Notes under the pieces: generated by a model
Database searches by the model: none
Told to the model about the DNA's origin: nothing
Seen by the model: the letters and a program-made list of their open reading frames with translations, nothing else
Shown here: positions 23,853 through 56,000 of the stretch, one piece after another
Layout: each line of letters opens with the position of its first letter
How positions within the stretch are numbered: position 1 is the first letter of the stretch
DNA from: Dehalococcoidia bacterium
GTDB lineage: Bacteria > Chloroflexota > Dehalococcoidia > Lucifugimonadales > UBA1123
Assembly: GCA_965202965.1 (NCBI GenBank)
Contig: CBDBCQ010000001.1
Span: forward strand, 6,626 to 70,625
Direction of reading: 5' to 3'
DNA: 64,000 nucleotides
Program-made: the position numbers and the translations under genes

Positions 23853-24830
23853 TTAACCGAAGTAAAGGTCTATGACAGTGCTTACCTCGACTAAGGTGAG
23901 TTGCCCGTCGAAGTAGTCATCGATGGCCGTGCTGACCTCGGAGAGATCGATGTTGCCGTCGCCATCTGCGTCGTACCTGTCAAGTAGCTCAGCGGCTAGC
24001 TGCCCAGAAGCCGAGCAGTCTGGGCCGGTGTCGGCATGGTAGCGGCTTGAAATACTGTTGAGCCAGACTTCAAAAGCTTCGTCAACCGGCACACAGAGTC
24101 CTGCATTCCCAGAGAAAGTAAACAATTCAAGCTCTGTGAGATTGGTGAGGCTGTGGGGTATTGTGCCCGTCAATTCGTTGTCCGACAGAGCCAACCTCGT
24201 CAGGCTCGACAGGTTGCCCAATTCCCTCGGTATTGTGCCCGTCAATTCGTTGCCCCACAGATATAACCTCGTCAGGTTCGGCAGGTTGCCCAGTTCTTTC
24301 GGTATCGCTCCCGTCAGTTCGTTGTCTCCAAGATCCAACCACGTCAGGCTCGACAGGTTGCCCAGTTCTCCCGGTATCGTGCCCGTCAGTTCGTTGTCTG
24401 CAAGATCCAACTCATCCAGGTTCGACAGGTTGCCCAGTTCTTTCGGTATTGTGCCTGTCATACTGTTGTCATCAAGATGCAATGTCGTCAGGTTCGACAG
24501 GTTGCCCAGTTCTTCCGGTATTGTGCCCGTCAAATTATTCCCATGGAAAATTAGTCCCGTAACACGCCCTGAGGCATCCGTATCTACGCCATACCATTCG
24601 TTGAGTGGGACATCGTCGTTCAGCCAGTTTGTGTTGTTTCGCCAGTTCTCACCGTTAGCGGCATTGTAAAGGGTGACGAGGGCTGCTCTATCGGCGTCAG
24701 GGGTAGGAGGCGTATGCGCGGCGGCAGGCTCCGAGGTCGCTGTAAAGAAGAGGAAGGTTGCCACCAATGCGGCGACAAGTAGGATTAGCGCGGTTTTAGT
24801 ATATATTTGGTGATTACGGGCAAATTGCAT
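23853..24830 (-). CDS. Membrane/secreted plant-type LRR protein with a C-terminal EF-hand/dockerin-like tail
   Basis: Start preferred at MQFARNHQIYTKTALILLVAALVATFLFF (TM segment); the ORF track extends to 24914 through a tail remnant. The cap is ALVTLYNAANGENWRNNTNWL...WYGV, followed by 6 repeats of L.GTIP.ELGNLS.L..L.L..N.LTG. The tail is LLDRYDADGDGNIDLSEVSTAIDDYFDGQLTLVEVSTVIDLYFG. Confidence 0.8.
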   Translation of the reverse strand: MQFARNHQIYTKTALILLVAALVATFLFFTATSEPAAAHTPPTPDADRAALVTLYNAANGENWRNNTNWLNDDVPLNEWYGVDTDASGRVTGLIFHGNNLTGTIPEELGNLSNLTTLHLDDNSMTGTIPKELGNLSNLDELDLADNELTGTIPGELGNLSSLTWLDLGDNELTGAIPKELGNLPNLTRLYLWGNELTGTIPRELGNLSSLTRLALSDNELTGTIPHSLTNLTELELFTFSGNAGLCVPVDEAFEVWLNSISSRYHADTGPDCSASGQLAAELLDRYDADGDGNIDLSEVSTAIDDYFDGQLTLVEVSTVIDLYFG

Positions 24831-24877
24831 AGGGCTTCTCTTTCTTAAGGCTGCGGGCAAGTCTCTCGTGGTCCATA

Positions 24878-24960
24878 TTTCTATCTGAAAGTAGAGGTCT
24901 ATAATAGTATTCACCTGAATGTGAGTTACCCGTATGAAGTGGTCGTCAATAACCTGCTGG
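24878..24960 (-). pseudogene. Degenerate remnant of an EF-hand/dockerin-like tail coding segment
   Basis: The minus strand reads ...QVIDDHFIRVTHIQVNTIIDLYFQ, compared with AIDDYFDGQLTLVEVSTVIDLYFG. The nucleotide alignment to 23856-23935 is recognisable (agtagaggtctat...gtgagtt.cccgt..gaagt.gtc.tc.at). Confidence 0.6.
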
Positions 24961-25203
24961 TAGCCGTTAGGAAGGAATTAGAAAACGCAGGGCATTTGTA
25001 AGCTACTCGACCATTGTATTTTTGATCAGATATGACGGATCTCACACTTCTTCCTCACAAGGCTTGACCCACACTCCAAGCCGACAGAACATAGTCGCAG
25101 GCATTATGCCAAATGGCAGCTCGGATTAGCAAATTGAGACCGGCAGGACAATCGCCAGGGCAATGGCAACAGGTGCGAGCTGCGAAACACCAACTCCGCT
25201 ACT

Positions 25204-25245
25204 GAACCTGCGGGTACCGAACCTGCGGGTACCGAACCTGCGGGC
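25204..25245. repeat. Short tandem repeat, 15-bp unit GAACCTGCGGGTACC x ~2.8
   Basis: Direct reading of 25204-25245, in an intergenic position. Confidence 0.9.
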
Positions 25246-25606
25246 AGACATCGGGCAACTCTGGTGTTTGTCGTTGCATCTGGTCTGTCCTGCGATATTG
25301 GACTCTCTCGCCGAGACGCCTCAAACTACGCCACTCCGCACTTACCGTGCGTCATCGAGGTGTATACGGGACCCACACGAACCACGGCACACCGGACCCA
25401 CACAGAATCCCAGTAGATGCCTAAGTGCTGTTGCGCTTCCATTCAAAAAACCTGCCAAATGATGCCCGTGTTCGTCAAGAACTTTTCCCAGAGTTGACCC
25501 ATAATCTGCATGTGCTTTAACGCAACCTACTATAACTGCTGGGACAGCGATACCAAGGTCGCCTGTCCCATACCTGAGAGCTGACCACCAGACTGGAGAT
25601 ATAGCC

Positions 25607-25804
25607 ATGACTGTGGTAATGAAGCGAACGCTGGCTGCCGTCTTTGCCGTGGCCGCATCTTCTGCACTCCTTTTTGTCCCGATGGCGGGCGGCAGCACGA
25701 CCGAAGCCCAGGCCGACGCAACGCCAACCCAGGGAGGCCCCGTCGTCGTCTGGGAGACGGCAATTCCGGAGGACTGGCCCGCGGTCAGGCAAGCCACTAC
25801 ATAA
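25607..25804 (+). CDS. Small ORF encoding only a signal peptide plus ~35 aa; probably the detached N terminus of the next gene
   Basis: MTVVMKRTLAAVFAVAASSALLFVPMAGGSTTEAQA..., with GGAG upstream. Its TAA overlaps the ATG of 25804..27852 (TAATG), and that gene lacks any signal peptide. Confidence 0.5.
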   Translation: MTVVMKRTLAAVFAVAASSALLFVPMAGGSTTEAQADATPTQGGPVVVWETAIPEDWPAVRQATT

Positions 25805-27852
25805 TGTCATTTGAAGCATACGCCGCTGATAAAAGCGTTCTGACGTTTACGCTGCGCGAGTCGGCCGATACGGCAAAGTTCTCACTAATCCCGGACGGGG
25901 TGAACGCTGACGGCAACCATATCGCCCACCTGGTCCTGAAAGAGGGACAGCAGCTTGACTACGAGAGCCAGCACACCTATCTGATCGGCGTGCAGGTGTC
26001 AGCCGAAGGCGGACCTGTCACCGAGGTCCTGCTGCGTCTGAGAATCACCGACGTCGACGAGACAATACCCACTCCTACAGTTTCACCCACACCCACAACT
26101 TCGCCCGTTCCCACACCCACAGTGCCTGCCGATCCCTGCTTCGAACCGATCTCAGGCAGTGTCAGCATCGTAAGAAGCTGGGACGCATCCTGCTTGTCCG
26201 TGAACAGGCCCAACACCGAAGGGCCGGGCGACTACTACGCGCGCTTTTTCACATTCTCGCTCGAAGAGACCGCGATGGTGACCATAACCCTGACCTCCGA
26301 AGTCGATACTTACCTGTATCTGATGAAGGGTTCGAGCAAAGACGGGGAGATCGAAGCGGAGAACGACGACATCGTTCCAAACTCTAACTACAACTCCGGT
26401 ATCAAAGACCAGGAGCTGGACCCGGGCGACTACACCATCGAAGCAACGGCATTCGATGAGCGAAAGAGCGGCAACTTCAGGCTTACAGTGAGCGGACTGC
26501 CGGCTACCGAGCAGCCACAGAGCGACTGCTCGACCGGGGCCGCAGTGCCGAACCCGGACGACGACACCGAACTGGTGACAGACTGTGAGACGCTTCTGGG
26601 TCTCAAGGATGCGCTGGCGGGCACCGGACTGCTTAACTGGTCGGCAGATGTCCCAATCGAAGACTGGAACGGAATCACCGTCAGCGACTCTCCCAGGCGG
26701 GTGACGCATCTGAGCCTCGACCGGAGCGGTTTGAGCGGGACAATTCCTCCCGCTCTGGGCAGTATTTCCGCGCTCAAGGTACTGTCTCTTTCCGGTAACG
26801 GTCTGAGCGGGACGATCCCAGCCGAACTGGGCAACCTTTCGAACCTGACGGAACTGTCGGTCGATACCAATCAGTTGACGGGAGAGATACCTGCCGAGCT
26901 GGGCAATCTGGCCAATCTCAGAACGCTATCGCTCGCTGACAACCAGCTGAGCGGACAGATACCGGTCGAACTGACCTACCTTTCAAGTCTCGAAGAGCTG
27001 AACCTGTCAGGCAACAGCCTGAGTGGCTGCATACCGCCGGCGCTGCAGGATATAGCGACCAACGACCTGTCGGAACTGGGCCTGTTGCCCTGCGCATCGG
27101 GCAAGTGCTCCACAGGCAGCGCGGTCGAGAACCCTGCTGAAAACCCCGGACTGGTCGCGGACTGCAACGCGCTCCTGGGGATGATGCGCATACTCGGGGG
27201 GAGAGCGTCGCTGAACTGGTCGGACGACACTTCAATAGAAGACTGGGAAGGCATCACCACCGGCGGATCACCCAGGCGCGTCACGCACCTGGAACTCAAC
27301 AGCCGGGGATTGACCGGAAGACTGCCGCTTACTCTGGGCACATTGTCCGAGCTCCAGATCCTCTGGCTTGCCAACAGCCAGATAACAGAAGGAATACCGG
27401 CTGAACTGGGAAGTCTCAGCAACCTGAAATGGCTGAATCTATCCGGGAACCAACTGGGTGGAGAGATACCAGCCGAGCTGGGCGGCCTCGCGAGCCTGGA
27501 ACTCCTGAACCTCAGCGACAATCGACTGAGTGGGGAGATGCCAGGGGAACTGGGCAGTCTCAGCAATCTGAAGGATGTGTACCTGCAGAACAATCTTCTG
27601 GATGGACAGCTGCCACCGGAGCTTGGCAGTCTCTCCAACCTGGGAAACCTGTCCAACCTGGAGCAGTTGCGGCTGTCCCAGAACCAGTTGACCGGGGACA
27701 TACCTGCTGAGCTCAGCAACCTCCCGAACCTGGAAGAGTTGTACCTGTTCGGCAACCGGCTGAGCGGCTGCATACCCGAGGACCTGCAAGACGTGCCAGA
27801 AAATGACCTGTCGTTGCTTAACCTGCCGGATTGCGAGGCAGATGACGAATAG
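25804..27852 (+). CDS. Cadherin-like + PPC-domain + double LRR-block protein with no signal peptide of its own
   Basis: Cadherin-type start (AADKSVLTFTL...LRITDVDE), a PT linker, and a PPC-like block (DYYARFFTFSL...DTYLYLM...ENDD...GDYTIEATAFDE..GNFRLTV). Two LRR blocks are each preceded by C..LL..KDAL.G...LNWS...PIEDW.GIT caps. It ends LNLPDCEADDE, without an EF-hand tail. Confidence 0.8.
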   Translation: MSFEAYAADKSVLTFTLRESADTAKFSLIPDGVNADGNHIAHLVLKEGQQLDYESQHTYLIGVQVSAEGGPVTEVLLRLRITDVDETIPTPTVSPTPTTSPVPTPTVPADPCFEPISGSVSIVRSWDASCLSVNRPNTEGPGDYYARFFTFSLEETAMVTITLTSEVDTYLYLMKGSSKDGEIEAENDDIVPNSNYNSGIKDQELDPGDYTIEATAFDERKSGNFRLTVSGLPATEQPQSDCSTGAAVPNPDDDTELVTDCETLLGLKDALAGTGLLNWSADVPIEDWNGITVSDSPRRVTHLSLDRSGLSGTIPPALGSISALKVLSLSGNGLSGTIPAELGNLSNLTELSVDTNQLTGEIPAELGNLANLRTLSLADNQLSGQIPVELTYLSSLEELNLSGNSLSGCIPPALQDIATNDLSELGLLPCASGKCSTGSAVENPAENPGLVADCNALLGMMRILGGRASLNWSDDTSIEDWEGITTGGSPRRVTHLELNSRGLTGRLPLTLGTLSELQILWLANSQITEGIPAELGSLSNLKWLNLSGNQLGGEIPAELGGLASLELLNLSDNRLSGEMPGELGSLSNLKDVYLQNNLLDGQLPPELGSLSNLGNLSNLEQLRLSQNQLTGDIPAELSNLPNLEELYLFGNRLSGCIPEDLQDVPENDLSLLNLPDCEADDE

Positions 27853-27894
27853 GAAATCCTTCTGCTTATTTCCGAATAATGGAGAAGTGCTGAA

Positions 27895-30516
27895 TTGAAT
27901 AAGCTACTGACTAACAAGAACTGGAAATCGGCATCACCTCTGGTAGTGGCATCGGCTGTTCTGGTTGCTCTGATGATATGGATACTGACGGGCGACGACG
28001 TAGCGCGACTTCAGGCGCAGACGCCGGACGAAGAAGCGCCTAGATTCGCAAACATGGACCTGCTGCTCAATGAGATAGCCCAGCAGTACCAGATGGGATC
28101 GTTCACGACAAGCGCCGCCGCCAACGCCCCCGTGAGTGGCGGAGAGTCAGTGGGCGTAATCTTCCTGACGGAAGCGGGAGAAGCCGATGACATTCGGGAC
28201 TTCCTTCTGGGAAACGGCGCGTCGCCCGGTCCTGCGTTTGAAACCTTTATCGGCGCAGACGTGCCCGCGAGTCTCTTGGCGGAGGCGTCGCAACAATACG
28301 GCGTTAACTGGATGCAGACGACCATTCCGCCGCGCGTAGTGCAGAGCGATTCGCCATCGGCGATTTCGCCGGAGCATGGCGCTGATGTCTGGCATCAGGC
28401 AGGCATCAGAGGAGAAGGTGTAAAGATTGGTGTGATCTCGCACGGCTTCGAAGGCTTTGAGGACACGATGGGCACGGCGCTGCCGGATTCAGTCGAAGCT
28501 AGGTGCTACGTTGGCTACGGTGTTTTCTCCGTGGACGTTGAAGACTGCGGCCATGATGATTCGGAAGAAGGTGAGGTCGGTCCCGGAACGGTTGCCGCAC
28601 AGGCCGTATTCAGCATCGCTCCGGAGGCTACCTACTACATCGCGCACGTCAACGACTCGATAGACTTCTTTGCTGCCACAAGGTGGTTCATTGCGAACGA
28701 GGTGGATGTAGTCGACAACTCACTCTTGTGGGTGTGGACGGGGCCCGGCGACGGCACGTCTCCCTTGACACTGAGCGCCCTGAATACTGTCGACGAAGCC
28801 GTGGCTGGAGGGATCACCTGGGTCACGCCCGCAGGAAACGACGCACAGGCCACCTGGTTCGGCAGCTTCGATGACGCCGACGGAAATGGCTTTCACAACT
28901 TTGCCGAAGACGGTGAAGACGAATGCAACAGGGTGGAAGTCGTCGCCGACGAGTTCTACTTTGCGCTTCTGCGGTGGGAAGGCGATTGGGATGCAGGCAC
29001 GGACGATTCGGATGACATAGACTTGACCGTGTATCTCGTACATGAAGACACTTCAAGAATCGTGAGGAGAAGCTTCAGCCCCTACTGGATACGCGCCGTC
29101 AACGCGCCTCTCAAGTATCTCTTCTTCTCCGCTCGAGACATCGAAGAAGATACATACTGCCTGAAGGTGGAACTTAGCGAAGGAGACGCTCCGGACTGGA
29201 TACAGCTGCAGTCGTTCTTCGGCAAGGAACTAGAATACCACACTTCCCATGGCAGCATCGGCAGCCCGGCAGAGAGCGCCAACCCAGGCCTGATAGCGGT
29301 TGGCACGGCTTCCCTTGAAGACCCGAACGTAATCTGGGAGCGTAGCAGCCAGGGCCCCACGCCTGACGGCAGGATCAAGCCGGACATCGTGGGCGGTCAG
29401 CACGAAGGCGAGGCGGAAGCGCACGGAGTAGAGGACCAGGAATATACGCCGGGCACGGGGCACGAGGCTGCGCATGTGGCAGGGCTTGCCGCGCTGGTAA
29501 AGCAGCGCTTTCCTGATTTTGAGCCGAAAGACGTAGCCGATTACCTGAAATCCAACGCCGAGGACCGCGGTGAGCCCGGCCCCGACAACACCTGGGGCTA
29601 CGGTTTCGCATTGCTTCCCGCATCGGACGCGGCAGACCCACCGGACCCGAATGTCTGCATACAGCGGATATTTGGCGATCAGACCATCGAGGGTGTCTGG
29701 AACGACACGTGCCTTTCAGATAACAGACCTGAAGATGAGGAAGGCCCCGGCGAAGGCGATTACTACGCTCGCTACTACACCATTGCGGTCGGTGAGAACA
29801 AACGGGTTACGATCAACCTGTCATCCGAAGAAGACACATACCTGTATCTCCTGGAAGGAGAAGGGAAGGACGGCGAAATAGTAGCGTCTAACGACGACGC
29901 CACCCGCTATCTCGACCTCAATTCCCGCATTGTGGTCGATAACCTGGAAGCCGGTACTTACACCATCGAGGCGACGACATATAATACAGACACCGGTGGC
30001 GACTTCTCGTTGACCGTGCAAACGTCGGATGCCGGCGAGGAGTCAGATCCCCTGCCGGTTCCCGCTCCTTCGGCGAGAGGGCCGTTCACCGAATTCAGCC
30101 GGGGCGCGGACCATGTCTGCGCTCTGCGCTCCGACGGGCGAATAGCGTGCTGGGGTGACGACGACTACGGCCAGTCATCGCCGCCTTCCGGCAAGTTTAC
30201 GGCAGTCAGTAGCGGTGAAGGTGGCAGCTGCGCGCTGCGAGATGACGGCGCGGCAGTATGCTGGGGTAGCTTCAAGGTCAGCCCTGGGTCCGATGACAAC
30301 GCGACTGGTCCGTTCACTGAGGTAAGCCGCGGCAGCGACCACGCCTGCGCGCTCGACTCCGACGGCGCGATAACCTGCTGGGGCTCGGACCGACACGGGC
30401 AGGCCACACCGCCGTCCGGCGAGTTCAGCGCCATCAGCAGCCACGAGCATGGCAGCTGCGCGCTGCGAAACGACGACGCGCTGGTCTGCTGGGGCAGCTT
30501 AGAGGTCAGTCCGTAA
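27895..30516 (+). CDS. Subtilase-fold pseudoenzyme (all three catalytic residues replaced) with a PPC-like domain and C-terminal RCC1-like repeats
   Basis: Collinear with the 506..4672 protease, with three changes: IGIIDTGF->IGVISHGF, AHGTAVAEAV->GPGTVAAQAV, GTSQASPHVAGLAALV->GTGHEAAHVAGLAALV. The C terminus carries four DH(V/A)CAL..DG...CWG..(D)YGQ..PP.G.F repeats (RCC1/BLIP-II-like). TTG start with a GGAGAAG SD and an N-terminal TM segment. Confidence 0.8.
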   Translation: MNKLLTNKNWKSASPLVVASAVLVALMIWILTGDDVARLQAQTPDEEAPRFANMDLLLNEIAQQYQMGSFTTSAAANAPVSGGESVGVIFLTEAGEADDIRDFLLGNGASPGPAFETFIGADVPASLLAEASQQYGVNWMQTTIPPRVVQSDSPSAISPEHGADVWHQAGIRGEGVKIGVISHGFEGFEDTMGTALPDSVEARCYVGYGVFSVDVEDCGHDDSEEGEVGPGTVAAQAVFSIAPEATYYIAHVNDSIDFFAATRWFIANEVDVVDNSLLWVWTGPGDGTSPLTLSALNTVDEAVAGGITWVTPAGNDAQATWFGSFDDADGNGFHNFAEDGEDECNRVEVVADEFYFALLRWEGDWDAGTDDSDDIDLTVYLVHEDTSRIVRRSFSPYWIRAVNAPLKYLFFSARDIEEDTYCLKVELSEGDAPDWIQLQSFFGKELEYHTSHGSIGSPAESANPGLIAVGTASLEDPNVIWERSSQGPTPDGRIKPDIVGGQHEGEAEAHGVEDQEYTPGTGHEAAHVAGLAALVKQRFPDFEPKDVADYLKSNAEDRGEPGPDNTWGYGFALLPASDAADPPDPNVCIQRIFGDQTIEGVWNDTCLSDNRPEDEEGPGEGDYYARYYTIAVGENKRVTINLSSEEDTYLYLLEGEGKDGEIVASNDDATRYLDLNSRIVVDNLEAGTYTIEATTYNTDTGGDFSLTVQTSDAGEESDPLPVPAPSARGPFTEFSRGADHVCALRSDGRIACWGDDDYGQSSPPSGKFTAVSSGEGGSCALRDDGAAVCWGSFKVSPGSDDNATGPFTEVSRGSDHACALDSDGAITCWGSDRHGQATPPSGEFSAISSHEHGSCALRNDDALVCWGSLEVSP

Positions 30517-30546: not shown

Positions 30547-30570
30547 CTGAATGTCAACACGCCTTAATCG
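30547..30570 (-). repeat. 24-nt copy (1 mismatch) of the 9346-9369 element-end sequence
   Basis: The minus strand reads CGATTAAGGCGTGTTGACATTCAG; 9346-9369 on the plus strand reads CGACTAAGGCGTGTTGACATTCAG. It lies about 235 nt downstream of the tnpB stop at 30802 and 31 nt after the subtilase-like gene stop. Confidence 0.9.
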
Positions 30571-30801
30571 AATCGGAGTGCTGGCGGCTATCAGCAGGCA
30601 GTATGCGACGAGATGCCGCCGGACGAGAGGCAACAGCCTCGGGATCCGCCGTCCAAGGCTTGTCCGGTACAGACATCGAACCAGACCGCTCAAAGACAAA
30701 TTATGTGCGTTAAATGCTTTTATTATCCAAGAACGCTACTGAACCGTCCGCGCATGTGCACGGTTTTCCGGGCGCACGGCGGGTACGTCCGCCGTTGCAT
30801 T

Positions 30802-32067
30802 TTACACACTGACGCGCCCCGCGATGTCCGGTTCTCCCGCGGAGGAGAGCAGCTGCGCCATTCCCCTCGTCAGTATGTTCTGTGCTGCATTTACGCTCCT
30901 GTTCAGGTCAGAGCCGCAAGATTCGCATGAAAAGCGCACCCTTCTGACCTCGTCAGCGGTCTCAGCCTCCCGGATAACTCCGCAAGCGCTGCAGGTCCGG
31001 GAGGTGAGGGCGGGATCGACGCGCACGAACTGCATACCGGCACCTTCCGCCTTGTATGCGAGTATCTGCGCGAACTCCCCCCACGTCTGCTCGAGCATGG
31101 AGCGATTGGATATGGTCTTCACATAGACAGCCACTCCGGACATGTCCGGAGTGGCACGCGCACTTGCCGTAAGTTTCTGGACCTCCAGGTCCTCGACAGC
31201 GAAGCAGTCGTACTTCTTCAGCAGCTGCGCAGTTATGCGATGCAGCTCGTTGCGGTTGCGAATCTGCTCCCTGTGGCTGTGCTTTCGCAGCTGCGCGGCG
31301 GTCTTTTCTCTGGACTTCGAGCCCATCTTCTGTCTCGCGACCCTGCGCTGCAGTCTGCGGCGGGGTCTGTTGTCCACGTGCCGACGCTCCACCGCCGTAC
31401 CGTCCGAAAATCCCCAACGCACGCGGCTGAGTCCTGCGTTTATGCCGACCGGGTTCTTCGCCCGCTCGATCCGAGGGTCTGCCTCGAGATGGTTGAAGAC
31501 AAGATATAGGTAGATACCATTGGGCCTGCGGCTGATGCGGATCTCGGCCGGCTGCACATCCACCGGCACGCGTGCGTCCTTGAAACGCAGCAGGGGCATG
31601 CCCTTGATTCTCACCGTACCCTTACCGGTATCGGCATCGACGCGCACGTCGCGGCTGTCGCCGGAATAGATCTCCAGTGTCTTCCAGCGCCTGGATGACT
31701 TGAAACGCGGATAACCCGGCGATTCACCCGCTGAGACGCGGCGATGAAAGGCCTCGAAGGCCCTGTCCAGCCTCTTGAGAGTGCCGACCTGCACTCGTCT
31801 GTTGAGCGCGCCCTCGATATCCGGGAAGTCCCTGCGGACCGCGGTAAGCGAGCGACTCTGCTCGATGTAGCCGATTCTCTTTCGATGTCCTTTCCAAGCA
31901 GTGGCCCGTTCCTGAAGTGCGGCATTGTACAGGAGACACTGCTGCGCCAGCACCTCATCAAACCGGATGTGCCCTGCCCTGCTGAGGTAGGCGCGGGTGC
32001 GGTAGGTGCGGATTATCCTTGGCCGCTCTGTCGAGGCGGCATCAGTTGGCGCGTTGGCAGTCGTCAT
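30802..32067 (-). CDS. tnpB: Full-length TnpB homolog with Asn at both the RuvC-I and RuvC-III Asp positions (predicted nuclease-dead)
   Basis: Collinear with the 54590..55774 TnpB. VGIDLGV corresponds to VGINAGL (D->N), IAIEDLKV to FAVEDLEV (E kept), and MDADVNAS to LNRSVNAA (D->N, D->S). The zinc finger is intact (CSACG...CESCG) and the ORF is uninterrupted at 421 aa. Confidence 0.85.
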   Translation of the reverse strand: MTTANAPTDAASTERPRIIRTYRTRAYLSRAGHIRFDEVLAQQCLLYNAALQERATAWKGHRKRIGYIEQSRSLTAVRRDFPDIEGALNRRVQVGTLKRLDRAFEAFHRRVSAGESPGYPRFKSSRRWKTLEIYSGDSRDVRVDADTGKGTVRIKGMPLLRFKDARVPVDVQPAEIRISRRPNGIYLYLVFNHLEADPRIERAKNPVGINAGLSRVRWGFSDGTAVERRHVDNRPRRRLQRRVARQKMGSKSREKTAAQLRKHSHREQIRNRNELHRITAQLLKKYDCFAVEDLEVQKLTASARATPDMSGVAVYVKTISNRSMLEQTWGEFAQILAYKAEGAGMQFVRVDPALTSRTCSACGVIREAETADEVRRVRFSCESCGSDLNRSVNAAQNILTRGMAQLLSSAGEPDIAGRVSV

Positions 32068-32515
32068 CAGACATCACTATAACCGACTACTCGCTGGTAT
32101 TGGAGATGGAAAACGTGCAAATTGAAGGTATTACTTTCACTTTGCACGATAACCAATTCTAAGGGGTCTGACAGTCGTCGTCCATGTGAAAAGACGTGCT
32201 GTCTGAGCGGAGAACTGTAGTGAGTAGAGGCCACTAACGGCCGTTGGCCTGCAATCGTCGTGACCATTTATCCTGAAAACTCAGAAGATGCGCCGAAACA
32301 GAAGATTATCAGAAGGTCGGTGAATTGGCGAATGAGGGAAATTGAGGAAGAAAATGGCATCAGTTCCTTCCCCCTTGATGAGGGAAGATCAGGATGGGAG
32401 TGAAAACACCTCTCTATCTTCCTAAGCCACAATGATGCAATTTTCTCGTGAGAGGAGGCGCATCATTCGCGGGGAGAGGTAGGTCAAATGCCCGGAAAGG
32501 TGTGCCTCCTCAGGA

Positions 32516-33009: not shown

Positions 33010-33705
33010 GGGAATTACAGAAGTAACAACCTTCTGTATTTACGCCGCGTCCAGCGCGGCGGCGGCGAAATTCCCGCCCGCCAGTGCCTTATGCAAGATG
33101 TTCCTAGCGGCATTTATATCCGCGTCTTCAGTCATCCCGCACTCGGCGCAGTCGTATCTCTTGCGTCGTCTGTGTTCAGCAGAAACCACTCCGCAGCCGG
33201 AGCACCTCTGCGATGTGAACTTCGGATCAACGGACACCAACTCCCTACCGGCCCATGCTGCCTTATAGTGGAGTTGATGGCGTATCAGTCCCCAGGTCTG
33301 TTCGCTTATGCTTCTGTTTAGCCCACTCTTTCGCCTCACATTTTTGCCAGGCTCCTCAATCGTGCCTTTAGCCGAGGCAGTCATATAGCCTATCTTCAAA
33401 TCTTCGATGGCGACCAAGCCGAATCGTCTAACAATGTCCGTAGTGACGCGATGGCACTCGTTGCGGTTCCTGACGCGCTCTCTGTCCTGGGCGTTGGCCA
33501 GAACCGCACGCCGCTGCTTCCAGCGACGACTTCCTTTCAGACAACGAGACATCCTCTGCTGAGCACGCTAATTGGGCTTGCGCCTTCTACCGAGACGCTC
33601 GCCAGTCGAAAGAGCTACTCTGTCCAAAACACCCATATCCAACCCAACAGCATTGTTGTTGGGTTGCAACGGCTCGTGCTCAACCGCGTACGCGAGATTC
33701 ACCGG
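33010..33705 (-). pseudogene. tnpB: tnpB pseudogene of the 54590..55774 family, 5'-truncated by insertion of the next tnpB element
   Basis: ORF 33040..33552 matches the C-terminal half of 54590..55774 (RWKQRRAVLANAQDRERVRNRNECH...IEDLK...CSGCG...CAECG..EDADINAARNIL...AAALDAA). Upstream, 33553-33705 still encodes VGLDMGVLDRVALSTGERLGRRRKPN with an in-frame stop. The GGGAATTACA terminus is retained at 33010-33019. Confidence 0.8.
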
Positions 33706-47131: not shown

Positions 47132-50100
47132 GTGTGGAGGGCGATGAATTCGCACAATCATGCCATGACGACCGCAACAAGGCTTACCGCCTGTGCTCTC
47201 CTCATCGCCGTCGCGCTCGCGATTGCCCTCCTGGCCACCTCCCGTGCCTATGCTCAGCAGAGCTGCACGAAAGTCACGATGATTTACGCGGAGGCTCATA
47301 ACACGCTCTACATGATCGATGGCGGCGGCAATCGCCTCGTTGACGTCCAGAGCGGCAATAGCCTGAGCAATCGTCAAGTCAATTCCTCCATCGTGGTGTG
47401 GGGAACCCCGTCCAGAATCGGGATTGAGATTTCACACACGGGCGCGACCAAATATAACTATAGAAGCAATGTTATTCAGTCCGGTGACAGGGGCTACGAA
47501 GATTACATAGACGGCGACTTCAACGATGCCGTGATTCTTCTCACATCCGTTATCTGCCCGGCAGGGGTAACCCCGCCTCGCCGGGTGTCCACGCCGACTC
47601 GTCCGCGGACAGCGCAGGCGAATACGGCACCCAGCATATCGTCGGTCAGTGCGGACAACATCGCCAAGACGACCGCGCGTGCCGTCGTGGAAATAGCCGA
47701 CCACGATGGCACCGAGCTGACCGTCAACTTGCGCTACCAGGAGAAGGCGGAGGCGCAGGACTGGCCGAATGCGCATACCGACACGGCGACCAGCAGCGCA
47801 AGTCCGGCTACGAAAAGCCTGGATAACTTGACGCCTGGTACGGAGTACGTGCTGCAGGCGTCGCTAGACGCCGCCTTCCCTGCCGAGGGAACGAAGGAGC
47901 ACACATTCACGACGGAGCGTCCGCCCAGCATATCGTCGGTCAGTGCGGACAACATCGCCAAGACAACCGCGCGGGCTGTCGTGGAAATAGCCGACCACGA
48001 TGGCACCGAGCTGACTGTCAACTTGCGCTACCAGGAGAAGGCGGAGGCGCAGGACTGGCCGAATGCGCATACCGACACGGCGACCAGCAGCGCAAGTCCG
48101 GCTACGAAAAGCCTGGATAACTTGACGCCTGGTACGGAGTATGTGCTGCAGGCGTCGCTAGACGCCGCCTTCCCTGCCGAGGGAACGAAGGAACATACAT
48201 TCACGACGGAGCGTCCGCCCAGCATATCGTCGGTCAGTGCGGACAACATCGCCAAGACGACCGCGCGTGCCGTCGTGGAAATAGCCGACCACGATGGCAC
48301 CGAGCTGACCGTCAACTTGCGCTACCAGGAGAAGGCGGAGGCGCAGGACTGGCCGAATGCGCATACCGACACGGCGACCAGCAGCGCAAGTCCGGCTACG
48401 AAAAGCCTGGATAACTTGACGCCTGGTACGGAGTACGTGCTGCAGGCGTCGCTAGACGCCGCCTTCCCTGCCGAGGGAACGAAGGAGCACACATTCACGA
48501 CGGAGCGTCCGCCCAGCATATCGTCGGTCAGTGCGGACAACATCGCCAAGACAACCGCGCGGGCTGTCGTGGAAATAGCCGACCACGATGGCACCGAGCT
48601 GACTGTCAACTTGCGCTACCAGGAGAAGGCGGAGGCGCAGGACTGGCCGAATGCGCATACCGACACGGCGACCAGCAGCGCAAGTCCGGCTACGAAAAGC
48701 CTGGATAACTTGACGCCTGGTACGGAGTACGTGCTGCAGGCGTCGCTAGACGCCGCCTTCCCTGCCGAGGGAACGAAGGAGCACACATTCACGACGGAGC
48801 GTCCACCCAGCATATCGTCGGTCAGTGTCGGTGACGTAGGGCAGACTTCAGCGGTCGCAACCGTGAGCATCGCCGACTCAGACGGCAGCACACAGACAGT
48901 CAAGCTGCAATATCGCGAGAAAGATGCGACTCCCGTAGAAGAGTGGAGTACGCGTCCCGTCCAGTCTGAGAGCAGCACAGGCGCGACTGCGCGCATCGAC
49001 CTCAGTGGATTAACCGCGAACACCAGGTACGAAGTACAAGCCTGGCTTGGGAGCGACGAAACTGTCAAGGTGGCAGTCGAGTTCAGAACTCTGCCGCCTG
49101 ATCCCAGCCTCTCCGGTGTCAGCATAGGCAGCATCACACAGACTTCAGCGGTCGCCACCGTGAGCATCGCCGACTCAGACGGCAGCACACAGACAGTCAA
49201 GCTGCAATATCGCGAGAAAGATGCGACTCCCGTAGAAGAGTGGAGTACGCGTCCCGTCCAGTCTGAGAGCAGCACAGGCGCTACTGCGCGCATCGACCTC
49301 AGTGGATTAACCGCGAACACCAGGTATGAAGTACAAGCCTGGCTTGGGAGCGACGAAACTGTCAAGGTGACAGTCGAGTTCAGAACTCTGCCTGATCCCA
49401 GCCTATCCGGTGTCAGCATAGGCAGCATCACACAGACTTCAGCGGTCGCAACCGTGAGCATCACCGACGCGGGCTCGGCGCAAAAGACGGTGTACATGTC
49501 TTTCCGCAAGTTCGGCGATACCGAGTGGAGCGAAGCGGGTCCGAAGACGACCAGGGGCGCGAATGTCGCCTACGACCTGACGGCGCTGGAGCCGGAAACG
49601 ACTTACGGGGTAAAGGCGCACCTCAAGGCTGACCTCCATACTTTCAAGCATGCGATATTCACCACGCTGTCGCCCGAACCGGAGCCGGAGCCCAGCGTAT
49701 CCGGTATCAGCTTTGGCAGTATCACCCAGACCACGGCAGTCGCTACCGTGAACATCGCCGACGCGGGCTCGGCGCAGAAGACGGTACGCCTGCGCTACCG
49801 CGTTAACGGCGCTACAACCTGGACTACGGAGAGTTCCCAGAACACCGGAGGCGCAAGCAAGGCATTCTCATTGGACGGGTTGACGGCGGGGACAACCTAT
49901 GAGGTTCAGGCGTGGCTGGATCTTACTATGCCACCTGCGGGCACAACCACCTACACGTTTGACACATTGGTGAACCCTCCGAGCATATCTGATCTCAGTT
50001 TCGAGGACATAGAGCAGACTTCCGCGACTGTAATGGTGGAAATCTCAGACGCCGGCACCGGGGAGAAAGAGGTCTTCCTGAGGTTCAGAATTCAGGGTGA

Positions 50101-53008
50101 GGACGACTGGACGACCCTCCCCAACCCGGCGACCACCAGCGGGGATGACGCTTCCATAGACCTTACAGGACTTCAGGAGCAGACGACCTACGAGGTGGCG
50201 GTTGCGCTCTCGGAAGACTTCAGCGGCACGGTCAAGAAATCGTTCACCACGCTGCCTCCGCCGAGCCTGTCAGGCGTGGGCATAGGCAGTATCACACAGA
50301 CATCTGCCGTCGCAACCGTGAGTATTGCCAACGCCGGTTCCGGCCAGAAGACGGCGCTCCTGCAGCACCGAGAATTCGGAGAGAGCGAATGGATCGAGTC
50401 CGAGAGCAAGACGACCAGTGGCGCGAGCGTCACGTTCAATCTCACCGGACTCGATCCCGGGACGAACTATGAGGTGAAGGCATATCTAAGCGCCGACCCT
50501 GACACGCCCAGGTATGTGGTATTCGTCACGCTGTCGCCAGGGGCCAGCGTGGATGATAGTGTCAGCGTGGCTGGTGTCAGCGTTGGAAGTATCACCCAGA
50601 CGTCGGCGGTCGCGACCGTGAGCGTCGCCCACCCGGGCACTGCACAGAATACCGTGCATCTGCGCTACCGCAAGTTCGGCGAAAGCGAATGGGTTTCGAA
50701 TGCGACCAAGACTGCTGCGGGCGCGAGCGTGCCTTTCGGCCTTTCGGAGTTGGCTCCGAAAACGAAGTACGAGGTGGAGGCTTCACTCAGCAGCGACTTC
50801 TCAGATGCCGAGTCGGCTACATTCACGACGCTGGCGCTTGACCCGCTCATATCGGGTGTGAGAGTGGATAACATAGCGCAGACCACGGCCACCGCGATAG
50901 TGACGATAGCAAACGCTGATGACGCTTCGCAGACCGTCCACACGCGCTATCGCGCGACAACGCCGCAGGGCGAGTGGAGCGCCGCTCAGACGACAACCAG
51001 CATCACCTCCACAGCCGAAATCAGTCTGTCCGGCCTCACTGCCGACACGGAGTACGAAGTTGAGGTGTCTCTGACAGACGACTTTGGCGTGTCACGGACA
51101 GCCACCTTCAGGACCCTGTCGTCCGGAACCCCGCTGCCCGATCCTGTGGTATCGAAGATCAGCGTCAACAATATCGCGCAGACGACGGCCACAGCATCGA
51201 TCGGCATCGCAAACGCAGACGGTGAGGAGCAGACTGTGCGCCTGCGCTATCGCACGGCCACGCACGGAGCCAATTGGGGCGAAGCACAGACGGCTACGAG
51301 CAGGACCGGCAGTGCGAGCATCGACCTGACAGGTCTCGCTCAAGGTGCAAGGTACGAAGTTCAGGCTTCACTGGACGATTCGTTCCCCACGAATCGCACA
51401 AAGTACACCGTCTTCACGACGCTGAGGTATCCGAGCATAGCCTCCGTTGAGGCAAGGAACGTCGGCAGAAATGCAGCGACCATAAGAGCCACCATAGCGG
51501 ACTCGCACGGTGAGGCGCAGACGGTCTATATCCGGCATCGCCGGACGAGCAGCAGCGCCTGGAGAACCACGCACCAGAAAGACTCCGTGAATGACGTTGC
51601 GAGTCTGAGCCTCGGTGGCTTGTCCTCGGGAACCGAATACATCGCTGAGGCGTCTCTCGACGACTCCTTCCCGTCGGATGAGACGAAATCCGTTACGTTC
51701 ACGACCAAGGATACGGCCGAGGATGACACTACCGAGGATCCGCCCAAAGACACCTCCAAGAAACGCGGGGATGGCGACGACGGAGCTTCAGGCAGGAGTG
51801 GCACTGTTCAGGCAGCTCAAGCAGCGAACGTACCATTGCTGGGCTTCTCGCCATTGATGCTCACGTTCACCGCGGTCGAGGGCGGTGACAACCCATCGCC
51901 TCAAACCTTCCAGGTCTGGAGCAGGTCGTCAGGGGCGATGACCTTCACCCTGTCGCACTCCGAAGAGTGGCTCTCTCAGGAGCCGCTGACGGGCAGGTCC
52001 AACGGGCCTGATAATCCCGTGACCATCACCGCATCGGTTGACTCGTCAGGCCTGGCGTCGGGTCAATACGTGGACGTCATCAACATAGACGTGAGTTCAT
52101 CGAGCGAGGCTTCCGGGCAGATCAATGTGACGCTGGACGTGTTGCCTCCGGATTATGTAAGGCAGTTTGTCTCACGGGCCGAAGGCGGGGTTGTGATGCT
52201 GCCGGACGGCACCGTGAAGATAGTGGTTCCGCCGCTTGCGCCACCAAAGGACGTGGACATCGAGCTGATGAAGGTGGACCCGCAGGCGCATGGCGCGCCC
52301 CCGGAAGAGCAGGAACGCGTGGTTGTGGCGATAGACTCGAACACATACTCGCCGGGCGGAGACATGCCGGAGGACGTCGCCTACTCTCCCAATGTGGAGC
52401 TGTGGATATTGCTGACTGACGGTGAATCTATCGCCTGCGCTGAAGGCAGAGCCAAGGTGTATGAGGTTGTGTCCGGGGACTGGAGACTCGTTGAACATCG
52501 CTGCGAGACGGACGAGTCGGGCAACGTGTGGATTGTGAGTGAAATCGATAGGCTTGGCGCATTTGCGCTGGTGATAGATGACTCTCCCGTGCCACCAGCA
52601 CCCGTAGCAGCGGCGGTTGTGCCTGCAGCGACGCCAACGCCTGCGGCGACGCCAATCACAGTTCTCACTGTGCCTCAGGGGACTGCGGTGCAGCGCACTT
52701 CACTGCCCGCGCTGGCTCCGACACCGACACCGACTCAGGTGCCAACTCCGCTGCCGATTCCCAGCAGGAAGACGGTGGCCGCGTCTGTATCATTCGTACC
52801 CACGCCAACGCCGACCGCGGTAGCAGCACCCACGCAGAGTTCAATGCCAGTGCTGCAGGCATCGACTGTCGCGCAAAGTTCCGGTGGATTTGATTGGATG
52901 ATACTTGCCGCTCTCGGAGTGTTTCTTCTTGGCGGCGCATTTATTGTCTTGTTCCTCGTTTACCGTAGGAGGCGGCGCTGGCGGCGCTATGTCGGACAAT
53001 ATCAGTAG
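47132..53008 (+). CDS. Giant membrane-anchored surface protein: signal peptide, DUF4114-like N domain, 14 tandem FN3-like modules, BACON-like domain, Pro/Thr linker, C-terminal TM anchor
   Basis: Signal ...AIALLATSRAYAQQ and YEDYIDGDFNDAVILL. There are 14 modules of 98-105 aa (pattern S.S.VS...I.QT.A.A.V.I......QTV.LRYR....W......T......L.GL...T.YEV.A.L). The BACON-like block is LLGFSPLMLTFTAVEGGDNPSPQTFQVWS. It ends WMILAALGVFLLGGAFIVLFLVYRRRRRWRRYVGQYQ. The probable start is the ATG at 47144 (GGAGGG upstream). Confidence 0.85.
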   Translation: MWRAMNSHNHAMTTATRLTACALLIAVALAIALLATSRAYAQQSCTKVTMIYAEAHNTLYMIDGGGNRLVDVQSGNSLSNRQVNSSIVVWGTPSRIGIEISHTGATKYNYRSNVIQSGDRGYEDYIDGDFNDAVILLTSVICPAGVTPPRRVSTPTRPRTAQANTAPSISSVSADNIAKTTARAVVEIADHDGTELTVNLRYQEKAEAQDWPNAHTDTATSSASPATKSLDNLTPGTEYVLQASLDAAFPAEGTKEHTFTTERPPSISSVSADNIAKTTARAVVEIADHDGTELTVNLRYQEKAEAQDWPNAHTDTATSSASPATKSLDNLTPGTEYVLQASLDAAFPAEGTKEHTFTTERPPSISSVSADNIAKTTARAVVEIADHDGTELTVNLRYQEKAEAQDWPNAHTDTATSSASPATKSLDNLTPGTEYVLQASLDAAFPAEGTKEHTFTTERPPSISSVSADNIAKTTARAVVEIADHDGTELTVNLRYQEKAEAQDWPNAHTDTATSSASPATKSLDNLTPGTEYVLQASLDAAFPAEGTKEHTFTTERPPSISSVSVGDVGQTSAVATVSIADSDGSTQTVKLQYREKDATPVEEWSTRPVQSESSTGATARIDLSGLTANTRYEVQAWLGSDETVKVAVEFRTLPPDPSLSGVSIGSITQTSAVATVSIADSDGSTQTVKLQYREKDATPVEEWSTRPVQSESSTGATARIDLSGLTANTRYEVQAWLGSDETVKVTVEFRTLPDPSLSGVSIGSITQTSAVATVSITDAGSAQKTVYMSFRKFGDTEWSEAGPKTTRGANVAYDLTALEPETTYGVKAHLKADLHTFKHAIFTTLSPEPEPEPSVSGISFGSITQTTAVATVNIADAGSAQKTVRLRYRVNGATTWTTESSQNTGGASKAFSLDGLTAGTTYEVQAWLDLTMPPAGTTTYTFDTLVNPPSISDLSFEDIEQTSATVMVEISDAGTGEKEVFLRFRIQGEDDWTTLPNPATTSGDDASIDLTGLQEQTTYEVAVALSEDFSGTVKKSFTTLPPPSLSGVGIGSITQTSAVATVSIANAGSGQKTALLQHREFGESEWIESESKTTSGASVTFNLTGLDPGTNYEVKAYLSADPDTPRYVVFVTLSPGASVDDSVSVAGVSVGSITQTSAVATVSVAHPGTAQNTVHLRYRKFGESEWVSNATKTAAGASVPFGLSELAPKTKYEVEASLSSDFSDAESATFTTLALDPLISGVRVDNIAQTTATAIVTIANADDASQTVHTRYRATTPQGEWSAAQTTTSITSTAEISLSGLTADTEYEVEVSLTDDFGVSRTATFRTLSSGTPLPDPVVSKISVNNIAQTTATASIGIANADGEEQTVRLRYRTATHGANWGEAQTATSRTGSASIDLTGLAQGARYEVQASLDDSFPTNRTKYTVFTTLRYPSIASVEARNVGRNAATIRATIADSHGEAQTVYIRHRRTSSSAWRTTHQKDSVNDVASLSLGGLSSGTEYIAEASLDDSFPSDETKSVTFTTKDTAEDDTTEDPPKDTSKKRGDGDDGASGRSGTVQAAQAANVPLLGFSPLMLTFTAVEGGDNPSPQTFQVWSRSSGAMTFTLSHSEEWLSQEPLTGRSNGPDNPVTITASVDSSGLASGQYVDVINIDVSSSSEASGQINVTLDVLPPDYVRQFVSRAEGGVVMLPDGTVKIVVPPLAPPKDVDIELMKVDPQAHGAPPEEQERVVVAIDSNTYSPGGDMPEDVAYSPNVELWILLTDGESIACAEGRAKVYEVVSGDWRLVEHRCETDESGNVWIVSEIDRLGAFALVIDDSPVPPAPVAAAVVPAATPTPAATPITVLTVPQGTAVQRTSLPALAPTPTPTQVPTPLPIPSRKTVAASVSFVPTPTPTAVAAPTQSSMPVLQASTVAQSSGGFDWMILAALGVFLLGGAFIVLFLVYRRRRRWRRYVGQYQ
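47630..48805 (+). repeat. Four near-identical 294-bp tandem repeats (coding, FN3-like modules 1-4)
   Basis: CCCAGCATATCGTCGGTCAGTGCGGAC recurs at 47630, 47924, 48218 and 48512. The antisense shadow ORFs in the track are also spaced exactly 294 nt apart. Confidence 0.95.
48806..49400 (+). repeat. Two near-identical ~297-bp tandem repeats (modules 5-6)
   Basis: GTGAGCATCGCCGACTCAGACGGCAGCACACAGACAGTCAAGCTGCAATATCGCGAG occurs at 48863 and 49160. Confidence 0.9.
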
Positions 53009-53060
53009 AAGAAGATTTGTGGAATGAGACAATTTCACAAATGAAGTTTCCCGTATCGTT

Positions 53061-54266
53061 CTACTCTTTCGGAGCGGAGCCGAGAACCCTGTATATCCTG
53101 TCGGCGGTGCGCTCCGATACCGGCAGCACCTCGACCACTACGCGCGAAAGCCCCACGACCTCCCCCTGCTCGTCGAAGCTGTAATTGTCGCCGATCGCGC
53201 CGCTCCATGTGATGTCGTAGAGGCAGTCGCGGAAGCCGTCAGCGTCCTGGTCGTCCTGCGTCTGCTTCAGGCACTCGGCGGCGATGAAGACGGTGTCGTA
53301 CACGGATCCCATGTGCCACGGGAAGACTACATAGCCGTAGCGTTCCCTGAAGTTGGCAACGACCTTCTGCCCCTTGCCGTTCGCGGGATCGAGGTCGGCG
53401 GTGATTGCCTTGAGGCCGGTCGCGGCCTCTCCTGCTATTTCCATTGAGGTCGCGCCGACGGTGACGGTCTCCGCGTAGATGGGGCCTTCGTAGCCGATCT
53501 CGCGCGCCTGCTTGATGATGGTGCCGGCCGTGAACTCGGACTGCGGCGCAATGTGCAGGGCGTCAGGGTTGGCGGCGAACAGTTTTTCGAGCTGAGTGCG
53601 GAAGTCGGTTACATCGGACGAGAATCGCTCTTCAGCCACCACTTCGCCGCCGCGCTTGAGGAACTGCCCCACGGATGTGCGCCTCACGCCCTCCGCATAG
53701 TCGGTCGCTTCCGTGATGGTCGCCAGCCTGCTGATGCCGTCTGCCCATAGGGTGTTGCCGGTGTCTATGCCGGTATATACATCGCTAATCTGGGTGCGGA
53801 AGATGTAGTCACCCGCATTGGCGATGTCAGGGTTTGCCGCCATCCCGGAGAACAGGATGGTGCCATCCGCCTCCGCGAGCGGAGCAGCGCCCAGCATCGC
53901 GCCGCTGCACGAGGTGCCGAGGATAATCTTGACGCCGTCCACGTCGGTCAGCTTGCGGTAGGCGGCGATTGCGCCCTGCGCGCTGCACTGCGAGTCCTCG
54001 ACGACGAACTCCAGCGGGCGTCCGTTGATGCCGCCCCCCGCGTTGATCTCGTCAAGCGCCATCTGCTTTGCCTGGTTCGCCATAACGCCGTAGGTCTCGC
54101 CGGGACCGGTCAGCGACTCCATCACGCCGATGCGGTAGGGAGCCTGCGCGTCTTCGCCGCCGCAAGCGATGAGGGCAATCAGGAGGATGGGCAGCACGGC
54201 AAGTGCGATGAAGAGTCTGATATGCGGGGTTGGCACGATGATTTTTCTCCAGTGTCCGTATGTCAC
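53061..54266 (-). CDS. ABC-transporter periplasmic substrate-binding lipoprotein, branched-chain amino acid (LivJ/Peripla_BP_6) type
   Basis: Lipobox LLIALIACGGED. Diagnostic sequence YRIGVMESLTGPGETYGVMANQAKQMALDEINAGGGINGRPLEFVVEDSQCSAQGA...VKIILGTSCSG. Confidence 0.8.
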   Translation of the reverse strand: MTYGHWRKIIVPTPHIRLFIALAVLPILLIALIACGGEDAQAPYRIGVMESLTGPGETYGVMANQAKQMALDEINAGGGINGRPLEFVVEDSQCSAQGAIAAYRKLTDVDGVKIILGTSCSGAMLGAAPLAEADGTILFSGMAANPDIANAGDYIFRTQISDVYTGIDTGNTLWADGISRLATITEATDYAEGVRRTSVGQFLKRGGEVVAEERFSSDVTDFRTQLEKLFAANPDALHIAPQSEFTAGTIIKQAREIGYEGPIYAETVTVGATSMEIAGEAATGLKAITADLDPANGKGQKVVANFRERYGYVVFPWHMGSVYDTVFIAAECLKQTQDDQDADGFRDCLYDITWSGAIGDNYSFDEQGEVVGLSRVVVEVLPVSERTADRIYRVLGSAPKE

Positions 54267-54517
54267 CTCTGCATAATATAGAGCAAATGCGACTGCACAG
54301 GAATATATTTTTGCACAGGGAGATCAATGATGGGTGAAACGAAAGGCGAGCGGCGAGAGCGGAAGCGCAGGAAGAAGCGCTACGGGCACAAGGTGAGCGG
54401 GCGCAGTATGCAGACGCTGCAGCGGATTATTGTGGAGAGGTCCGAGGGGGAGCGGGCGCGGGAGGGGTTGGCAGCAGTTGACTGATAAGTAGTTTATAGA
54501 TGACAAGAGTTGTTGTT

Positions 54518-55815: not shown

Positions 55816-55970
55816 TTGTTGTTTGTATCAGGCGCAGCAATGACCTTGGTTTGGTACAATAGTTCCATGCCAGGCAAAGACAACCTGACTTTCACCTACA
55901 AGACTCGCATCAGCGGCAACTGTTGCTAACCCCGAATCCTCATTGGATTGGCCTGCTGGTAGTCTCCTTG

Positions 55971-56000
55971 TTGACACTTTCTCCTTACCTGCCATAATAT
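55971..56000 (+). promoter_or_regulatory. Sigma70-like promoter of the second vapBC operon
   Basis: TTGACA at 55971-55976 and a CATAAT/ATAATA -10 at 55993-55999 (16-17 nt spacer). AGGAGG lies at 56014-56019, 5 nt before the ATG at 56025. Confidence 0.6.

Follow-up and report, generated by a model that had tools for sequence, protein, structure and literature searches.

A TnpB-family protein without two catalytic aspartates and its overlapping guide-RNA-like scaffold in marine Chloroflexota: a probable TldR-like RNA-guided DNA binder

A TnpB-family gene lacking two catalytic aspartates

We analysed a stretch of 64,000 nucleotides (nt), hereafter the window, from a Dehalococcoidia bacterium of the Chloroflexota (GenBank assembly GCA_965202965.1, contig CBDBCQ010000001.1, positions 6,626 to 70,625 of the forward strand), which carries on its minus strand a TnpB-family gene that we call dTnpB, among other tnpB copies and genes for very large surface proteins (Table 1). 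A first-pass annotation, made from the letters alone, had described it as an intact TnpB of 421 amino acids (aa) with asparagine in place of the aspartates of RuvC-I and RuvC-III, the RuvC-II glutamate (FAVEDL) and the zinc finger being kept, and had listed the corresponding motifs of the four other full-length TnpBs of the window. These descriptions held up throughout, and every one of the listed motifs is present as quoted. The open reading frame (ORF) starts at an ATG and matches Cas12f1-like_TNB (PF07282, 5.9e-21) and the NCBIfam model guided_TnpB (NF040570, 146.8 bits against a cut-off of 100), with OrfB_IS605 (PF01385) slightly below its own cut-off (28.4 against 30.5 bits). In phmmer alignments the protein is collinear with ISDra2 TnpB (8bf8) across residues 25-402, and the motifs pair as GVDVG/VGINAG, TEHL/VEDL, and HDRDENAA/LNRSVNAA. 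The profiles and the architecture, with wedge and recognition (WED/REC) domains, RuvC, and zinc finger, are thus those of the TnpB family, and the triad, which is D-E-D in a functional TnpB nuclease, reads N210-E292-N389. An exact-sequence lookup of the protein returned no record.

The active-site columns were re-examined in an AlphaFold model (mean predicted local distance difference test score 76), whose best structural matches in Foldseek are the ISDra2 and ISFba1 TnpB proteins. N210 and E292 end the strands 206-210 and 288-292, and N389 begins the last helix, so that the three residues sit at RuvC positions. Since some TnpB and Fanzor proteins are known to carry relocated RuvC residues, the protein might in principle still be an active nuclease with acidic residues elsewhere; D287 is invariant, acidic, and specific to the clade described below, and D293 is nearly invariant, though common to active relatives as well. 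Against this, the triad retains one position of three, with K, L, P, or S at the lost ones in sister lineages, and D287 lies in the model at the opposite strand end from E292. The Asp of CGSDLN, which the annotation had named as a residue that might compensate, was rejected as a catalytic substitute because its position reads D, N, V, A, E, or G across the clade. We regard continued nuclease activity as very improbable.

Table 1. Features of the window and of homologous loci (positions with an L prefix refer to the clade loci so labelled)
Feature	Position	Strand	Basis or remark
TnpB-family gene, predicted nuclease-dead (dTnpB), 421 aa, intact	30802..32067	-	ORF from ATG; Pfam/NCBIfam; predicted fold; selection
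Codon AAC, N210, RuvC-I Asp position (VGINAG)	31438..31440	-	opposite ISDra2 TnpB D191; N/K across clade
Codon GAG, E292, RuvC-II Glu (FAVEDL)	31192..31194	-	opposite ISDra2 E278; invariant in clade
Codon AAC, N389, RuvC-III Asp position (LNRSVNAA)	30901..30903	-	opposite ISDra2 D361; N/L/P/S/H in clade
CxxC...CxxC zinc finger (C359, C362, C381, C384)	30916..30993	-	columns invariant in 31-sequence clade alignment
Weak sigma-70-like promoter match TGGACG-17-TAGAAT	32156..32184	-	consensus scan only
Guide-RNA scaffold (omega-RNA/tracrRNA-like), 130 nt, ends in GCGCCCGGAAAAC	30763..30892	-	covariation, covariance model, fold, dS drop
CRISPR-repeat-like unit: hairpin CCGUGC-ACAU-GCGCGG, then tail ACGGUUC	30741..30762	-	directly after scaffold; hairpin in fold
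Candidate fixed guide AGTAGCGTTCTTGGATAATA	30721..30740	-	first 12 nt (30729-30740) conserved; putative guide role
Degenerate second scaffold remnant	25235-25354 (with tandem 15-mers 25196..25354)	-	covariance model 14.9 bits, E = 0.16
Three tandem 15-mers (CAGGTTCGGTACCCG twice, CAGGTTCAGTAGCGG)	25196-25240	-	overlap downstream end of second scaffold remnant
Cadherin-like gene, 1337 aa	17505-21518	-	downstream neighbour; Pfam PF12733/PF00028 for gene pair
Cadherin gene, 2108 aa	11024-17350	-	downstream neighbour; Pfam PF12733/PF00028 for gene pair
Full-length TnpB, VGIDLG / MDADVNAS	54590-55774
Full-length TnpB, VGIDMG / MDRDENAA	33721-34998
Full-length TnpB, GLDVG / HDRNLNAA	41533-42777
Full-length TnpB, AVDTG / HERNLNAA	9349-10725		Glu for Asp at RuvC-III
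TnpB fragment (fifth further copy)	33040-33552
DDE transposase (DUF772/DDE_Tnp_1)	61987-63381
ORF-less scaffold copies, 82-132 bits	L001:13399-13529; L011:7703-7831; L008:12901-13030; L003:11367-11488		covariance model
CRISPR array	L007:3061-3945		15 repeats; farthest repeat most degenerate
CRISPR array	L010:11278-11840		at least 10 repeats; those nearest gene most degenerate
CRISPR array	L094:7490-7980		~9 repeats
CRISPR array	L095:9300-9490		3-4 repeats
CRISPR array	L092:11392-11481		2 repeats

The losses are fixed in a clade under purifying selection

A homologue search covering 5.8 billion proteins placed the window protein in a tight group of the SAR202 cluster/Dehalococcoidia, made up of about 66 full-length clusters plus fragments that are 57-86% identical to it. 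The identity of the next relatives falls to 46% or less, and these are mostly D-E-D. Within the group the RuvC-I position is N (K in one subclade), the glutamate is kept, and N, L, P, S, or H occurs at RuvC-III; no metal can be bound by K, L, P, or S. The group is monophyletic in a neighbour-joining tree with a D-E-S pair (P0061/62) at its base, which suggests that the RuvC-III aspartate was lost first, then that of RuvC-I, and that N was later replaced by K in one subclade. The clade as a whole thereby conserves inactivating changes at two or more positions of the RuvC triad, as do the TldRs, repressors that are TnpB-like and nuclease-dead (Wiegand et al., bioRxiv 10.1101/2023.11.30.569447; Xiao et al. 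10.64898/2026.09.22.753285). A metagenome scan with the clade alignment returned mainly distant TnpBs, generic N-terminal patterns having been used.

The ratio of nonsynonymous to synonymous substitution rates (dN/dS, Nei-Gojobori) lies between 0.10 and 0.30 in all 66 pairs among 12 orthologs and paralogs. The synonymous rate is unsaturated for the window copy against L001a (dS 0.38, dN/dS 0.21) and L091 (dS 0.54, dN/dS 0.26) and for L006 against L009 (dS 0.22, dN/dS 0.12), and saturated between the two paralog groups of the clade. Regional values range from 0.08 to 0.61 over WED/REC, RuvC, and the zinc finger, with every region constrained. In the last 36 codons dS drops 3-5-fold and, in the window's own group only, dN/dS rises to 0.4-1.2, as would be expected if selection also acts on an overlapping RNA and so lowers dS. 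This comparison with orthologs, which the annotation had proposed, gives no sign of pseudogene-like relaxation. A decaying gene whose frame is open by chance could be imagined, given that the region is a graveyard of insertion sequences (ISs) with a truncated TnpB fragment nearby and that the Shine-Dalgarno sequence of the window copy is weak. Yet more than 60 diverged orthologs are intact, the inactivating residues have become fixed, the RNA that overlaps the frame is conserved, and the constraint is clade-wide and touches every region, which removes this explanation; it appears effectively refuted, and we give it next to no credence.

Among the relatives at 40% identity we observed a second, independent N-E-N lineage (VGLNRG ... 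LNQDTNAA; P0084, P0091, P0096), one member of which carries the NCBI name 'transposase [Chloroflexota bacterium]'. This lineage may represent another clade of dead TnpBs.

A structured RNA overlaps the 3' end of the gene

The annotation had expected an omega-RNA, the guide RNA of TnpB, in the 3' flank of about 240 nt (30560-30801). A structured RNA is indeed predicted there, but it lies mostly inside the ORF: it covers the last 91 nt of the dTnpB frame, stop codon included, and only 39 nt beyond. The ortholog alignment accordingly starts about 90 nt within the frame and reaches 39 nt beyond the stop, and conservation ceases at GCGCCCGGAAAAC. RNAalifold folds it into a multi-helix scaffold with 42 pairs, 16 of them compensatory. 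In the named scaffold structure 95.5% of the cells are paired, and compensatory double changes occur at 14 of 38 pairs, as compared with 6.0 +/- 1.5 in shuffled controls (none of 500 reached 14) and at most 2 with slid partners. The same helices arise when the window scaffold is folded as a single sequence. A covariance model scores the window copy at 136 bits and detects a single copy after each intact ortholog (102-142 bits), and Rfam has no family that matches the scaffold region. A neighbouring putative guide-RNA gene with a conserved scaffold, as in TldRs, is therefore a predicted property of the clade.

The model also recovered scaffold copies without an ORF in four loci; in three of these (L001, L011, L008) no more than a short remnant of C-terminal coding sequence is left. 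The copies may have been kept beside the dead TnpB as spare guide genes. In the window, a degenerate second scaffold remnant has the 12-nt GGTTCAGTAGCG in common with the tail of the first.

Repeat-like units, candidate guides, and CRISPR arrays

The scaffold of the window leads directly into a unit that resembles a CRISPR repeat, 13 nt of which (GCGCGGACGGTTC) are identical to the array repeats behind the L095 ortholog; the repeats of L010 carry the same 3' motif. Beyond this unit, the 12 nt AGTAGCGTTCTT are 75-100% identical among the window, L001 (two copies), and L091, after which identity falls to background; in the other type of tail, 14 nt (xxGGCGTATTTTTT) are kept before a similar fall. 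There are accordingly two types of candidate guide, alpha (AGTAGCGTTCTT...) and beta (GGCGTATTTTTT...), and conservation breaks off 12-14 nt beyond the repeat-like unit. TldR guides have been reported to span 9-16 nt, and we count the comparable length of the conserved segment in favour of a fixed guide. An alternative reading would place the guide at 30743-30762.

In the window, AGTAGCGTTCTT and TTAAGGCGTGTTGACA, which are contiguous in the second tail of L001, are separated by about 170 nt (30560-30728, minus strand). This looks like a window-specific insertion, and a TTGACA within it could be a -35 box.

Whole CRISPR arrays follow the scaffold in five of the ~14 clade loci, in separate lineages. 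They have a 61-nt period with palindromic repeats of 28-29 nt and spacers of 32 nt, a geometry typical of type I-E arrays, to which we tentatively assign them on this ground, and they begin about 50-55 nt past the scaffold in the same orientation. Repeat remnants occupy the same place in the window, L001, L091, L008, L096, and L093. We found no cas genes within the fetched flanks of the five array loci, no array in the 64-kb window, and no Rfam match for the array repeats.

These arrays raise the question of whether the protein is a nuclease-dead, CRISPR-coupled type V effector akin to Cas12n, with the scaffold acting as trans-activating CRISPR RNA (tracrRNA) and guides drawn from the adjacent array, or, in a variant, whether it binds or regulates that array. 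The window copy would then have collapsed, its scaffold being fused with a single repeat and a single spacer into a natural single-guide RNA. Besides the position and orientation of the arrays, the absence of nearby cas genes, and the repeat remnants, two arguments point this way. First, the best sequence match of dTnpB in the PDB is RdCas12n (9j09, E = 3.9e-24, aligned residues 232-402 only), and both RuvC halves have a long insertion after RuvC-II; in RdCas12n (type V-N, formerly V-U4/C2c9; PDB 9J09, PMC12216341) the tracrRNA overlaps the ORF and the CRISPR RNA (crRNA) comes from an adjacent array. Second, the segment after the scaffold pairs with the repeat of its own locus in five of five loci, leaving a 6-nt tail. 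As a tracrRNA anti-repeat, however, this pairing found no significant support in RNAduplex comparisons with shuffles, in cross-locus pairs, and in positional scans, with energies no better than those of shuffles. Its register is moreover that of the repeat's own hairpin, and the segment may instead be a first repeat that has degenerated and become fused to the scaffold. Nor is the RuvC half of RdCas12n closer to the dead clade (37-40% identity) than to active TnpB relatives (41-46%), the window protein has none of the Cas12n-type REC/WED expansions, and guided_TnpB is the only NCBIfam model that reaches its cut-off for it. Most of the clade, the window copy among them, lacks an array and is under purifying selection all the same, and the type I-E-like arrays could have come to lie beside the gene through one ancestral insertion next to such an array. 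On balance we consider a CRISPR-coupled effector unlikely.

A related and bolder idea, which we put forward tentatively as a minority view, is that the clade is a previously undescribed, nuclease-dead, TnpB-sized relative of Cas12n natively wired to type I-E-like arrays. Its scaffold would end in, or pair with, the first repeat, so that spacers acquired by the adaptation machinery of another system would reprogram a DNA-binding repressor. In lineages of the window type this arrangement would have collapsed into a natural single-guide RNA carrying one fixed guide or two, accompanied by spare guide genes that lack an ORF.

Gene context and mobile elements

Neither tnpA nor transposon ends accompany dTnpB: no tnpA is adjacent, the gene is not bounded by ends, and conservation upstream stops with the promoter. 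The larger paralog group has a clear TTGACG-17-TATAAT and a GGAG directly upstream. The features expected of a transposon-borne TnpB, namely tnpA and/or defined ends and multiple copies, are thus lacking, and clusters of the clade lie almost all on one to three contigs, none being present in many copies.

What accompanies the gene instead is a recurrent set of non-transposon genes. A cadherin-like gene followed by a cadherin gene lies downstream of the ortholog in the window, L001/L002, L003, and L091, and cadherin-domain genes are likewise downstream in L008. Upstream, hicB is found in L001b, L003, and L009, and downstream, a gene for HU in L007 and L092. Loss of the transposon context with association to non-transposon genes, as described for TldRs, therefore extends to this clade. 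The association is looser than in the fliC and oppF groups of TldRs, with IS insertions intervening, and in the window two plus-strand genes (25804-30516) break the otherwise syntenic arrangement of dTnpB and cadherin genes. The cadherin pair may be mere context or may be the regulatory target of dTnpB; the synteny with cadherin/leucine-rich repeat (LRR) operons suggests a possible role in the control of cell-surface proteins.

The surroundings invite the explanation that the protein serves transposons, either as the non-cutting TnpB of a (recently) mobile IS or as a regulator of the active TnpB elements around it. The loci are crowded with IS605/IS607 TnpB genes, often right behind the RNA of the dead gene (L001, L008, L009), and each holds two paralogs and several fragments or orphan copies. 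But the lack of an adjacent tnpA and of any conserved left end beyond the promoter, together with the low copy number, argues otherwise, as do vertical inheritance in syntenic loci and the saturated dS between the paralog groups; these groups and the duplicated tails of the clade loci show an old tandem duplication. Searches of the guides against neighbouring IS copies gave no match. We hold a transposon-serving role to be improbable.

Interpretation and relation to known systems

Taken together, the fixed loss of two aspartates, the purifying selection, the covarying RNA, the absence of a transposase, and the synteny suggest that dTnpB is probably a TldR-like protein, domesticated and nuclease-dead, that binds DNA under the guidance of RNA, and they lend support to the proposal of the annotation that this copy was exapted for RNA-guided binding and is not decaying. 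What we infer on this basis is binding to RNA and to DNA, repression, and the identity of guide and target. The protein would fold as a TnpB and bind the ~130-nt scaffold encoded across its own 3' end; it would be unable to cleave DNA because both metal-binding aspartates of RuvC are gone. The RNA would run on into the CRISPR-repeat-like hairpin and then into the short conserved segment of about 12 nt, and this 3' extension of the scaffold would most likely serve as a fixed guide. Without cutting, the complex might then attach to a chromosomal site that matches and obstruct transcription or some other transaction on the DNA.

Several observations weigh against this interpretation. We found no target however the guide was read (as the first 12-20 nt past the scaffold, as the repeat tail with the downstream segment, or as the conserved 12-mer), either in the 64-kb window, where only self matches and duplicated tails were returned, or within 10 kb on either side of the orthologs, a search that took in a small part of each genome and for which no target-adjacent motif was defined. 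The sequence straight after the scaffold folds as a hairpin, which is odd for a guide. The window copy is without the clear Shine-Dalgarno sequence and TATAAT box of its paralogs, and the IS-rich region with its duplicated fragments indicates that some mobility or turnover has occurred. Viral contigs had no exact match to one guide and one L007 spacer. Two apparent targets were rejected: a 12-nt match at 25196-25240 upstream of the LRR/cadherin genes and a site in L091, 65 nt upstream of the cadherin-like start, were both reread as remnants of a duplicated second tail.

Like the TldRs, the dTnpB clade derives from TnpB, has lost and fixed at least two residues of the RuvC triad, has neither tnpA nor ends, is stably associated with non-transposon genes, and keeps a 3' guide-RNA gene with a short conserved guide-like segment. 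The described TldR groups are associated with oppF, fliC, and csrA and come from Enterococci, Enterobacteriaceae, and Clostridia, whereas the present lineage is an independent one of Chloroflexota (SAR202/Dehalococcoidia), set apart from them by the descriptions of those groups. Its proteins are of full length, with the zinc finger and the RuvC fold intact. The annotation saw in this a departure from TldRs; the length is as stated, but many TldRs, not all, are C-terminally truncated (Wiegand et al., 10.1101/2023.11.30.569447), so that full length alone does not set the protein apart. Further differences are that the dTnpB scaffold leads into a CRISPR-repeat-like unit or a whole array and that extra ORF-less scaffold genes exist.

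With Cas12n, the clade has in common a scaffold that overlaps the 3' end of the ORF and, in five loci, an array directly downstream. Cas12n, however, cleaves DNA with an intact D-E-D, and RdCas12n has 540 aa with REC/WED expansions, whereas the dTnpB proteins are nuclease-dead by sequence, TnpB-sized, and mostly without arrays. The TnpBs of IS200/IS605-IS607 elements (ISDra2, PDB 8BF8/8H1J) have the same fold, domain order, zinc finger, and scaffold over the 3' end of the gene; dTnpB differs from them in having no catalytic aspartates, transposase, or ends and in being present as one or two diverged paralogs per syntenic locus under long-term selection as a host gene. Cas12m, Cas12c, Cas12k, and dCas12f-sigmaE (PMC13472631) are non-cutting RNA-guided DNA binders of TnpB/Cas12 stock, as is proposed here for dTnpB, but they are larger, linked to bona fide CRISPR systems or sigma factors, and use other RNAs, and no partner protein is evident for dTnpB.

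TldRs are a recent discovery, and the few clades studied so far are all from Firmicutes and Enterobacteria; to these the present work would add an old and diversified clade of marine Chloroflexota. By keeping the full TnpB body and its RNA, dTnpB would be a compact natural binder comparable to dCas, and the clade is a natural experiment on the role of the RuvC lobe once cutting is lost. With the arrays behind the scaffold and the affinity to Cas12n, two questions become testable: by what route the guide RNAs of transposons gave rise to tracrRNA/crRNA systems, and whether a dead effector is able to borrow an array. If the relationship to Cas12n were true, the clade would connect omega-RNA, tracrRNA-crRNA, and regulators of the TldR type as a living intermediate.

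Further observations on the neighbourhood

Much of the window (506-30516 and 47132-61755) encodes very large predicted surface or secreted proteins, including cadherin-like, cadherin, LRR, fn3, subtilase with RCC1 repeats, and reprolysin types. Large runs of surface proteins of the cadherin/LRR/fn3 type are a pattern reported for sponge-associated symbionts. The three tandem 15-mers that overlap the second scaffold remnant lie about 290 nt upstream of an LRR gene (23853-24914) at the head of a string that includes the cadherin genes.

Two of the further TnpB copies of the window (54590-55774 and 33040-33552) are copies of the 41%-identical active relative, and their mutual similarity ends exactly at the stop codon. 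This suggests that the active family, unlike the dead clade, has its right end, and with it the beginning of the guide, at the stop codon. In three other loci, TnpB elements of the active type are found about 130-200 nt downstream of the RNA of the dead gene (L001:4184-5524, L008:11465-12586, and L009:11468-12937); IS605-type elements may insert preferentially at this place.

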